Virus record (IMG/VR): IMGVR_UViG_2690316175_000004
DNA: 10,128 nucleotides
Reading direction: 5' to 3' (one strand)
Source: a virus
Taxonomy: Duplodnaviria > Heunggongvirae > Uroviricota > Caudoviricetes
The position numbers are program-made. Below, one piece after another: positions 6,001 through 9,000 of this stretch; the first letter of the stretch is position 1, and each line of letters starts with the position of its first letter.

Positions 6001-9000
6001 GCACAGAACACGGCAGCCGCGAAGAAATCAGCCAGCGATGCCAGCACATCAGCCCGTGAGGCGGCAACCCATGCGACTGATGCTGCAGATTCAGCACGTG
6101 CAGCCAGCACGTCAGCCGGACAGGCCGCTTCGTCGGCTCAGTCAGCGTCTTCCAGCGCAGGAACGGCATCAACAAAGGCCACTGAAGCCTCAAAAAGTGC
6201 TGCCGCTGCAGAGTCCTCAAAAAGCGCGGCGGCTACCAGTGCCGGTGCGGCGAAAACGTTAGAAACGAATGCGGCAGCGTCACAACAATCAGCAGCCACT
6301 TCTGCATCCACCGCGACCACGAAAGCGTCAGAAGCTGCCACCTCAGCCCGGGATGCGTCGGCTTCAAAAGAGGCGGCAAAATCATCAGAAACGAACGCAT
6401 CATCAAGCGCCAGTAGCGCAGCTTCCTCGGCGACGGCGGCTGCAAATTCTGCGAAGGCGGCCAAAACGTCCGAGACGAACGCCAGGTCTTCTGAAACGGC
6501 AGCGGGACAGAGTGCCTCAGCTGCGGCAGGCTCAAAAACAGCGGCTGCGTCGTCTGCCAGCGCCGCGTCAACAAGTGCCGGGCAGGCCTCAGCCAGTGCC
6601 ACCGCCGCCGGAAAATCGGCAGAAAGCGCCGCATCATCCGCTTCAACAGCCACAACGAAGGCTGGCGAAGCCACTGAGCAGGCCACGGCAGCAGCGAGGT
6701 CAGCTTCCGCAGCGAAGACATCCGAAACGAACGCGAAAGCGTCGGAAACCCGTGCAGAATCCTCAAAAACGGCTGCCGCATCGTCCGCCAGTTCGGCGGC
6801 GTCATCGGCATCATCGGCGTCTGCTTCAAAAGATGAGGCGACCAGACAGGCGTCAGCAGCGAAGGGCAGCGCCACGACGGCATCCACGAAGGCGACAGAG
6901 GCTGCTGGTAGTGCGACGGCAGCAGCTCAGAGCAAAAGTACGGCGGAATCTGCAGCAACGCGCGCTGAGACAGCGGCAAAACGGGCAGAGGATATTGCAT
7001 CCGCCGTGGCGCTTGAGGATGCGAGCACGACGAAAAAGGGGATAGTACAGCTCAGTAGTGCGACTAACAGCACTTCCGAGTCACTGGCGGCAACACCAAA
7101 AGCCGTTAAGGCCGCGTATGACCTGGCTAACGGGAAATACACCGCACAGGATGCAACGACAGCACAGAAAGGGATAATCCAGCTAAGCAGCGCGACCAAC
7201 AGCACGTCTGAAACGCTGGCGGCAACGCCAAAGGCAGTAAAAGCAGCCAATGACAATGCTGAGAAACGTCTGCAGAAAGATCAGAACGGTGCGGATATCC
7301 CTGGCAAAGACACCTTTACGAAAAATATTGGTGCCTGCCGTGCCTTCGGTGGGTCAGTAAGCACAACAACAGGAAACTGGACGACTGCACAGTTTATCGA
7401 GTGGCTGGATTCTCAGGGAGCATTTAACCATCCATACTGGATGTGCAAGGGTTCCTGGTCTTATGGCAATAATAAAATCATTACTGATACTGGCTGCGGT
7501 AATATTCATCTCGCCGGAGCTGTCATTGAAGTAATGGGGATAAAGTCAGCGATGACGATCCGCATTACCACTCCGACCACATCCAGCGGTGGCGGAACAA
7601 CCAACGCCCAGTTTACCTATATTAATCACGGAACAGATTATTCACCTGGCTGGCGAAGGGACTATAACTCCAGAAATAAGCCAACGGCATCAGAGATCGG
7701 GGCGCTACCGTCAGGTGGAACAGCAGTATCATCAGTTAATCTGGCTTCAAAAGGTCGGGTAGCCGCGCTGACAGACAATACGCAGGGGGCAGCAGGTCTT
7801 GAGTTATACGAGGTGTATAACAACGGATATCCAACAGCGTATGGAAATATCATTCACCTGAAAGGGATGACAGCCGTTGGCGAAGGTGAGTTACTCATCG
7901 GCTGGAGTGGTACAAGCGGTGCTCATGCTCCGGCATTTATTCGTTCACGACGGGATACGACCGACGCAAACTGGTCGCCGTGGGCGCAGCTTTACACCTC
8001 GGCTCATCCTCCTGCAGAGTTTTATCCAGTCGGTGCACCAATCCCGTGGCCATCAGATACCGTTCCGTCTGGTTATGCCCTGATGCAGGGGCAGACTTTT
8101 GACAAATCTGCTTACCCGAAACTTGCAGCCGCTTATCCGTCAGGCGTGATCCCTGATATGCGTGGCTGGACGATTAAGGGCAAGCCCGCCAGTGGTCGTG
8201 CCGTATTGTCTCAGGAACAGGATGGCATTAAATCGCACACCCACAGCGCCAGCGCATCCAGTACGGATTTGGGGACGAAAACCACATCGTCGTTTGATTA
8301 CGGCACTAAATCCACGAATAACACCGGGGCGCATACGCACAGTCTGAGCGGCTCTACAAGTTCAGCTGGGGCCCACCAACATAGTCAGACTGGGCCCAGA
8401 ACGAATAGCGGGAGTCAACCTACTGGAATGTTTCCGGCAGGGAGTACTCAAGTTAGCGGGACTAATCAGGTTGGTATCAGTGGCTCATTAACCAGTGGCA
8501 CCTCCCAATGGGTAGGTAAATCATCTTCAGAAGGAAACCATACACACTCACTGTCCGGCACAGCAGCATCTGCGGGTGCACACGCGCATACTGTCGGTAT
8601 TGGTGCTCATACGCACTCTGTTGCGATTGGTTCACATGGACACACCATCACCGTTAACGCTGCTGGTAACGCGGAAAACACCGTCAAAAACATCGCATTT
8701 AACTATATTGTGAGGCTCGCATAATGGCATTCAGAATGAGTGAACAAGCACGGACCATAAAAATTTATAACCTGCTGGCCGGAACTAATGAATTTATTGG
8801 TGAAGGTGACGCATATATTCCGCCTCATACAGGTCTGCCTGCAAACAGTACCGATATTGCACCGCCAGATATTCCGGCTGGTTTCGTGGCTGTTTTCAAC
8901 AGTGATGAGTCATCGTGGCATCTCGTTGAAGATCATCGGGGTAAAACGGTTTATGACGTGGCTTCCGGCGACGCGTTATTTATTTCTGAACTCGGCTCAT

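Follow-up and report, generated by a model that had tools for sequence, protein, structure and literature searches.

What is the role of seven His-x-His (HxH) motifs gathered at the C-terminus of a side tail fibre protein, and which part of such a fibre would touch the host cell? The question is raised by a 10,128-nt stretch of DNA from a virus of the Caudoviricetes (IMG/VR record IMGVR_UViG_2690316175_000004), which we analysed whole and refer to as the window, and by its side tail fibre gene, stf. An initial annotation had compared the motifs of the encoded protein, Stf, to the metal-coordinating needle at the tip of the T4 long tail fibre protein gp37 and had suggested that a separate region upstream binds the receptor. 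By direct translation, stf is an open reading frame (ORF) at 5635-8724 on the plus strand that encodes 1029 amino acids (aa). Its true start is probably the ATG at 5641, because the alignments to Pfam and to PDB 9E7M both open at ORF residue 3. The gene is recognised by the Pfam families phage_tail_N, Phage_fiber_2, and Collar and by PHROG 295 (tail fiber protein, E = 3e-244).

Stf contains exactly seven HxH motifs, located between residues 868 and 1003 (nt 8236-8643). In order along the plus strand these are KSHTHSAS (motif 1; aa 868, H868/870; nt 8236-8244), GAHTHSLS (motif 2; aa 900, H900/902; nt 8332-8340), GAHQHSQT (motif 3; aa 914, H914/916; nt 8374-8382), GNHTHSLS (motif 4; aa 969, H969/971; nt 8539-8547), GAHAHTVG (motif 5; aa 983, H983/985; nt 8581-8589), GAHTHSVA (motif 6; aa 992, H992/994; nt 8608-8616), and GSHGHTIT (motif 7; aa 1001, H1001/1003; nt 8635-8643). 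Fourteen of the 22 histidines of the protein lie within its last 170 aa, and all 14 belong to these motifs. The initial annotation had placed seven HxH motifs at 8230-8650, and every string that it quoted was present there on translation; its description of the segment as rich in Gly, Ser, and Thr agrees with the composition of the last 170 aa (Ser 30, Thr 24, Gly 23, Ala 18). It was right that the motifs stand near the end of the protein, but they span the last 162 residues rather than the last ~150.

The number of motifs was compared with that in shuffled sequences. Shuffles of the whole protein gave a mean of 0.45 HxH motifs, shuffles confined to the last 170 aa gave a mean of 1.07, and seven motifs were reached in 0 of 20,000 shuffles in either case. 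The count is far beyond chance. An origin of the repeats in recent DNA duplications was also considered and rejected, as a repeat search of nt 8200-8724 returned a single 15-nt imperfect direct repeat. Together with the synonymous differences between motifs, this result argues for selection at the protein level.

The relationship to T4 is one of direct homology. When the C-terminal 254 aa of Stf were searched against the PDB with phmmer, a strong match was obtained to 2XGF (E = 3.5e-84; query 21-254 versus chain 28-242), which comprises residues 785-1026 of T4 gp37, the receptor-binding tip with its D10 collar and D11 needle plus tip. The two proteins are about 70% identical over the whole crystallised tip. 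The HxH motifs of the T4 tip, at residues 883, 915, 929, 966, 980, 989, and 998, correspond one-to-one to the seven in the window, and the start-to-start spacing is 32, 14, X, 14, 9, and 9 in both proteins, with X equal to 37 in T4 and 55 in the window. Sequence similarity, seven motifs in register, a collar with a C-terminal strand, and a chaperone gene directly downstream were all found, as expected for a tip of the 2XGF type, and the resemblance to the gp37 needle that had been proposed from the motifs is borne out. When the tip was scanned alone, the 14-residue repeat of Pfam Phage_fiber (PF03335) was detected in five stretches at 34 bits (cutoff 20).

On the basis of this alignment the tip can be divided into five segments, all on the plus strand. 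The first part of the gp37-type collar occupies aa 795-866 (8017-8232) and is matched by Pfam Collar (PF07484) at aa 800-847 with E = 7e-12. An outward needle strand (8233-8382) carries motifs 1-3, which align with T4 H883/885, H915/917, and H929/931 at spacings of 32 and 14. The head, or tip, domain, aa 917-968 (8383-8538), is the predicted receptor-contacting cassette. A returning needle strand (8539-8670) carries motifs 4-7, aligned with T4 H966/968, H980/982, H989/991, and H998/1000 at spacings of 14, 9, and 9. The C-terminal segment, aa 1013-1029 (8671-8721; ...[14 protein letters not shown]), leads back to the collar. The bounds of the collar were mapped with a 15-residue offset from the T4 D10 domain, which consists of residues 811-881 plus 1010-1026 (PMC6957217) and thus includes a C-terminal part as well. 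Identity to T4 gp37 is 81% over the collar and outward strand (aa 795-916) and 77% over the returning strand, whereas the head is 52 aa long versus 34 aa in T4 and only 15% identical. The protein ends in ...[16 protein letters not shown], as T4 gp37 does, and over its final 18 residues ([16 protein letters not shown] and preceding) it does not differ from T4 gp37, lambda Stf, or any aligned relative.

The T4 and lambda proteins provide the functional background for these segments. The T4 needle is described as holding seven coordinated iron atoms along its length (PMC6957217). Within it, H929 of each of the three chains contributes to a metal-binding motif with one coordinated iron atom, and alanine substitution of H929/H931, the equivalents of H914/H916 in the window, abolishes plaque formation; these residues are described as iron-binding and essential (PMC6957217). 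The T4 tip residues between H931 and H966 bind lipopolysaccharide (LPS) and OmpC, with residues 933-953 lining the tip and mediating this binding (PMC6957217). Structural homology to the gp37 tip has been described for lambda Stf, which binds OmpC (PMC12617516; PMC7291167), and HxH motifs have been reported for lambda as well (PMC11705849).

The pattern of conservation follows the same division. We took as relatives the best 120 proteins of the first homology search, 118 of which have a complete C-terminus. Seven HxH motifs spaced 32, 14, X, 14, 9, and 9 were present in 115 of these 118, with X ranging from 35 to 56, and the gap between motifs 3 and 4 was the sole gap of variable length. When 61 sequences were aligned, identity to the query was 92-99% in the collar, in the two needle strands, and in the C-terminal strand, with entropies of 0.04-0.22 bits, versus 23% identity and a mean column entropy of 2.15 bits for aa 917-968. 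The tip is thus a constant scaffold carrying one hypervariable insert, and this insert occupies the position of the receptor-contacting tip of T4. The head behaves as a hypervariable, swappable cassette, for which receptor contact is predicted by homology to T4. One relative, P0100, lacks the whole segment from motif 2 to motif 4, including the head, and keeps five motifs (alignment A1, columns 308-380); it looks like the product of in-frame recombination between HTHS repeats.

Comparison with related stf loci placed the limits of the cassette more precisely. The temperate Escherichia phage PhiR26_1 (PV340555) and the Stf alleles of Escherichia coli prophages share 93-100% DNA identity with the window over the 3.1-kb stf plus tfa, the adjacent chaperone gene, and therefore have the same architecture. 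Against PhiR26_1, identity of 93-100% extends along 3.6 kb of the Stf-Tfa region outside the cassette and falls to 42-44% solely at nt about 8338-8545, where the segment between motifs 2 and 4 has been replaced; the breakpoints lie within the codons of HxH 2 and HxH 4. The converse was observed in E. coli BH100N, whose Stf (946 aa, shorter than that of the window; BH100N locus 3555-6395) has a 100% identical head and an identical needle but carries unrelated sequence in place of window nt 7255-8064, which take in the two shaft modules A and B described below. Since the same head is joined to a different shaft, head and shaft modules assort independently. The BH100N prophage ends beside the iron/manganese transporter operon sitABCD (BH100N locus 7757-11206), which is probably coincidental cargo or a neighbouring locus.

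Of 5426 complete E. coli genomes, 25 carried the exact head allele at coverage of at least 80% and 43 gave any match; the allele was absent at the DNA level from the phage records searched. Among phage proteins, the heads closest to it are those of gp37 in some T4-like phages, at 55-57% aa identity, which indicates exchange across phage families.

We conclude that the C-terminal ~235 residues of Stf very probably constitute a receptor-binding tip of the T4 gp37/lambda Stf type, with a needle that is predicted to be metal-stapled and a distal head. Direct observation covers the motifs and their register, the homology, the pattern of variability, the breakpoints of the mosaic, and the neighbouring genes. 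By homology to T4, the Stf of the window would also be trimeric, would bind metal, presumably the same one, and would contact a receptor through its head. In such a fibre, three Stf chains would form the collar, as judged by homology, and each chain would run outward through motifs 1-3, form the head, and return through motifs 4-7, giving a six-stranded antiparallel beta needle. The motifs would create seven levels on the threefold axis, at each of which two histidines per HxH from three chains would offer six histidines to one metal ion. These axial ions, which are Fe2+ in the T4 crystal, would hold the thin fibre together. The 52 residues of the head would fold into a distal domain touching the host receptor, and exchange of the head cassette by recombination inside the conserved HxH-coding flanks would retarget the fibre. 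Tfa, encoded directly downstream, would chaperone folding and trimerisation of the tip. Binding of the head to a surface receptor would be reversible and would speed adsorption before J engages its own receptor. As a default guess, the receptor of this Stf would be an OmpC-type porin or the LPS core.

Several points weigh against this interpretation. An AlphaFold2 monomer model of aa 790-1029, built from the 61-sequence alignment, had a mean predicted local distance difference test (pLDDT) score of 45 and a predicted template modelling (pTM) score of 0.19, with almost no secondary structure, although a poor monomer model is expected for an intertwined, metal-stapled trimer. The proposed trimer geometry and metal coordination are carried over from 2XGF by homology, and the metal could differ from the iron of the T4 crystal. 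The head exceeds that of T4 by 18 residues and is unrelated in sequence, so that neither fold nor receptor is transferable from T4. Finally, the prophage may be defective, because a deletion of 83 nt puts the adjacent lom gene out of frame and the assembly is fragmentary; expression of the fibre is accordingly putative.

Among the alternatives, the one that survives best, although we consider it improbable, assigns receptor binding to nt 7260-8200 and leaves the HxH region as a merely structural tail. Receptor binding in this stretch had been suggested initially, when it was taken for a globular, Trp/Tyr-rich domain that could be the receptor- or carbohydrate-binding part. The suggestion is not supported: the stretch is made up of three separate modules, namely a module A similar to the Mu fibre protein S', a module B, and the gp37-type collar. 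Shaft module A (aa 541 to about 700; 7255-7734, plus strand) is a globular alpha/beta unit homologous to Mu S', matching residues 178-362 of PDB 8JU3 (stretch E = 1.1e-70). It is confidently predicted to be globular, with AlphaFold pLDDT of 80-95 over most of its length, and to this extent the alternative is favoured; in addition, modules A and B are swapped as a unit between alleles and may therefore carry some specificity, such as a secondary contact. In the Mu S' fibre, however, the segment homologous to module A is proximal. Shaft module B (aa about 700-794; 7735-8016, plus strand) matches PHROGs 22609 and 37852, is modelled with moderate AlphaFold confidence (60-75), and is weakly similar to the C-terminal region of T4 gp34 (Pfam Gp34_trimer, E = 0.0037; Foldseek 4UXG, prob 0.8). 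The two modules were also considered as tandem copies of one domain, which was rejected, as BLASTP between them gave E = 0.54 and only a short W..Y..P ending in common.

A fold search bears on the same alternative. We modelled aa 535-800 with AlphaFold2 (mean pLDDT 70.5) and compared the model with the PDB using Foldseek. All matches were to fibre-shaft structures, including a weak one to the T4 gp34 C-terminus; 8JU3 alone was significant (E = 3.4e-21, through module A), and no lectin or carbohydrate-binding fold was found in this region. Furthermore, the relatives show 98% conservation of the collar inside nt 7260-8200, it is the distal head (aa 917-968) that is hypervariable, and the T4 equivalent of the head binds LPS and OmpC (PMC6957217). 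The evidence places modules A and B as shaft or adaptor modules and primary specificity in the head; the two modules may make a secondary contact with the cell surface.

The mosaic structure raises a second alternative, that the HxH-coding stretches persist mainly as patches of homology for recombination during head swaps and not for metal binding. For gp37 of T-even phages, conserved His-containing motifs ("His boxes") have long been proposed as recombination points at which specificity is swapped, and our mosaic observations fit this idea and are nothing new in kind. The cassette breakpoints in PhiR26_1 fall at HxH 2 and HxH 4, P0100 has lost the motif 2-4 segment as recombination between repeats would give, and it is gp37 proteins of some T4-like phages that hold the phage heads closest to this one. 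The two roles are not mutually exclusive, however, and conservation at the amino acid level, synonymous differences between the motifs, and the single imperfect DNA repeat point to selection on the protein. Mutagenesis in T4 showed that the histidines are required for function, which contradicts tolerance of His-to-Ala changes there (PMC6957217). We regard recombination as the main reason for the persistence of the motifs as very unlikely. Least credible of all is that the motifs are a by-product of a low-complexity tail rich in Gly, Ser, Thr, and His, with no metal-binding or structural role, as the compositional bias of the last 170 residues and the lack of structural support from the monomer model of the tip are outweighed by the composition-preserving shuffles, by the agreement of T4 and lambdoid prophages in how many motifs there are and in their register and spacing, and by the description of the equivalent T4 histidines as iron-binding and essential (PMC6957217).

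The gp37-type tip is joined to a fibre that otherwise resembles that of lambda. The N-terminal tail-attachment domain (aa 3-136; 5641-6042, plus strand) was identified as Pfam phage_tail_N (PF08400, E = 1.4e-71), and ORF residues 3-96 match the 94-aa chain "Tail fiber protein" of PDB 9E7M (E = 4.4e-52), which we take, from PMC12617516, to be the Ur-lambda Stf collar domain described in that paper. It is followed by an Ala/Ser/Thr-rich low-complexity segment (aa about 137-460; 6043-7014, plus strand) that matches fibre-shaft PHROGs; a function as proximal shaft is likely, and the equivalent region of Ur-lambda Stf has been modelled as a coiled-coil shaft (PMC12617516). The minus strand and the other frames contain long ORFs across 6043-7014 (for example, 6138-6887, 6233-7000, and 6269-7045); they are spurious by-products of the biased codon composition, not genes. 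Two Phage_fiber_2 repeats come next, the best stretch being aa 464-504 and the second directly after it (7024-7254, plus strand, end approximate; Pfam PF03406, E = 6.3e-37 over two stretches). NCBIfam gave no match for Stf or Tfa.

The tail fibre assembly chaperone gene, tfa (8724-9305, plus strand; 193 aa), has a start codon that overlaps the stf stop and encodes a protein matched by Pfam Caudo_TAP (E = 4.6e-44). Tfa is 93% identical to lambda Tfa and only 31% identical to T4 gp38 (E = 3e-20). The genes stand in the order J (C-terminus, to 4989), lom (5060-5542), stf (5635-8724), and tfa (8724-9305), and Pfam detected gpJ domains, Ail/Lom, phage_tail_N with Phage_fiber_2 and Collar, and Caudo_TAP, respectively. 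The same order occurs in lambda, in complete E. coli genomes such as BH100N, and in PhiR26_1. Both the N-terminal attachment domain and the J-lom-stf-tfa order of a lambda-type Stf are therefore present in the window.

Comparison with three known systems defines how far each likeness extends. The window shares with T4 gp37 the collar, the needle register, the C-terminal strand, and the position of the chaperone gene, but apart from the unrelated head, the rest of its Stf is also unrelated to gp37, having a lambda-type N-terminus and different shaft modules; its chaperone is lambda Tfa-like rather than gp38-like; and it encodes the fibre of a siphovirus-type prophage, whereas T4 is a myovirus. 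With Ur-lambda Stf (orf-401/orf-314) and Tfa it shares gene order, the type of phage_tail_N domain, the PDB 9E7M match, and a tip of the gp37 type, with about 70% identity over the final 233 aa. Lambda Stf, the receptor of which is OmpC, differs in having eight HxH motifs (with an extra GAHQHPVV unit), a duplicated SFDYGTK segment, a different head, and a length of 774 aa without the Mu S'-like module. With Mu, the likeness covers aa 541 to about 700 of the window, aligned to residues 178 to about 335 of S' (gp52; PDB 8JU3), and the preceding Phage_fiber_2 repeats, which match both Mu S (residues 90-175; 5YVQ/8JU3) and S'. Distally, the Mu fibre carries another kind of receptor-binding domain and no HxH needle. 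Only S' residues of about 98-362 were matched, and a Mu-type distal receptor-binding domain with a U/U' chaperone was not found in the window; as its distal part is gp37-type and its chaperone lambda Tfa-type, the Mu module is shared without membership in the Mu S' family.

The surroundings of these genes are fragmentary. The window is part of a draft enterobacterial genome, a scaffold with runs of N at 330-362, 3075, and 9527-9830, and it holds two separate lambdoid J'-lom-stf tail-end arrays, at 34-2845 and 3076-9305, that are joined via a single N at 3075. Because the join passes through one N, the two arrays may have been placed side by side by the assembly rather than standing in a true tandem. 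The first stf copy (2477-3074) differs in its N-terminal allele and is cut short at about 122 codons, just where an IS21-family element begins with its left end; many E. coli chromosomes and plasmids carry annotated istA regions that match nt 2840-3074 at 100% identity. The 685-aa ORF at 2932-4989 is an artefact, in which the N-terminus of istA is fused to J across the N at 3075. Compared with the intact lom at 1856-2455, the lom of the second array (5060-5542) has lost 83 nt between two CTGGCG microhomologies. The loss causes a frameshift and leaves an ORF of 160 aa in place of 199 aa, which makes this copy a probable pseudogene. In E. coli C8 (NZ_CP010125), a macro domain-containing gene with an internal stop lies between the related stf and tfa (locus 4530-5432). 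Some E. coli prophages thus carry macro-domain cargo at the stf-tfa junction; the window has no such insertion.

The HxH iron sites of the gp37/Stf tip, the homology of lambda Stf to T4 gp37, and the exchange of tip segments are already established. The main interpretation of the initial annotation is correct and was already known for the gp37/Stf tip family; as the tip is a well-described structure, the finding is ordinary and has little discovery value. Its worth is practical, in that the bounds of an exchangeable head cassette (nt about 8338-8545) are given precisely within a conserved needle, and the idea of the Trp/Tyr-rich upstream region as the receptor-binding part is corrected. The sole uncharacterised element is the particular head allele. 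Both the cassette bounds and the identification of this rare allele could help the engineering of lambda-based delivery particles and the typing of prophage host range. A tentative suggestion, to which we give somewhat less than an even chance, is that the allele may target a receptor, or a receptor variant, other than the K-12 OmpC and LPS core recognised by lambda Stf and T4 gp37. If so, it would represent a natural, ready-made specificity cassette, bounded by HxH 2 and HxH 4, that is common to temperate siphoviruses and lytic myoviruses.

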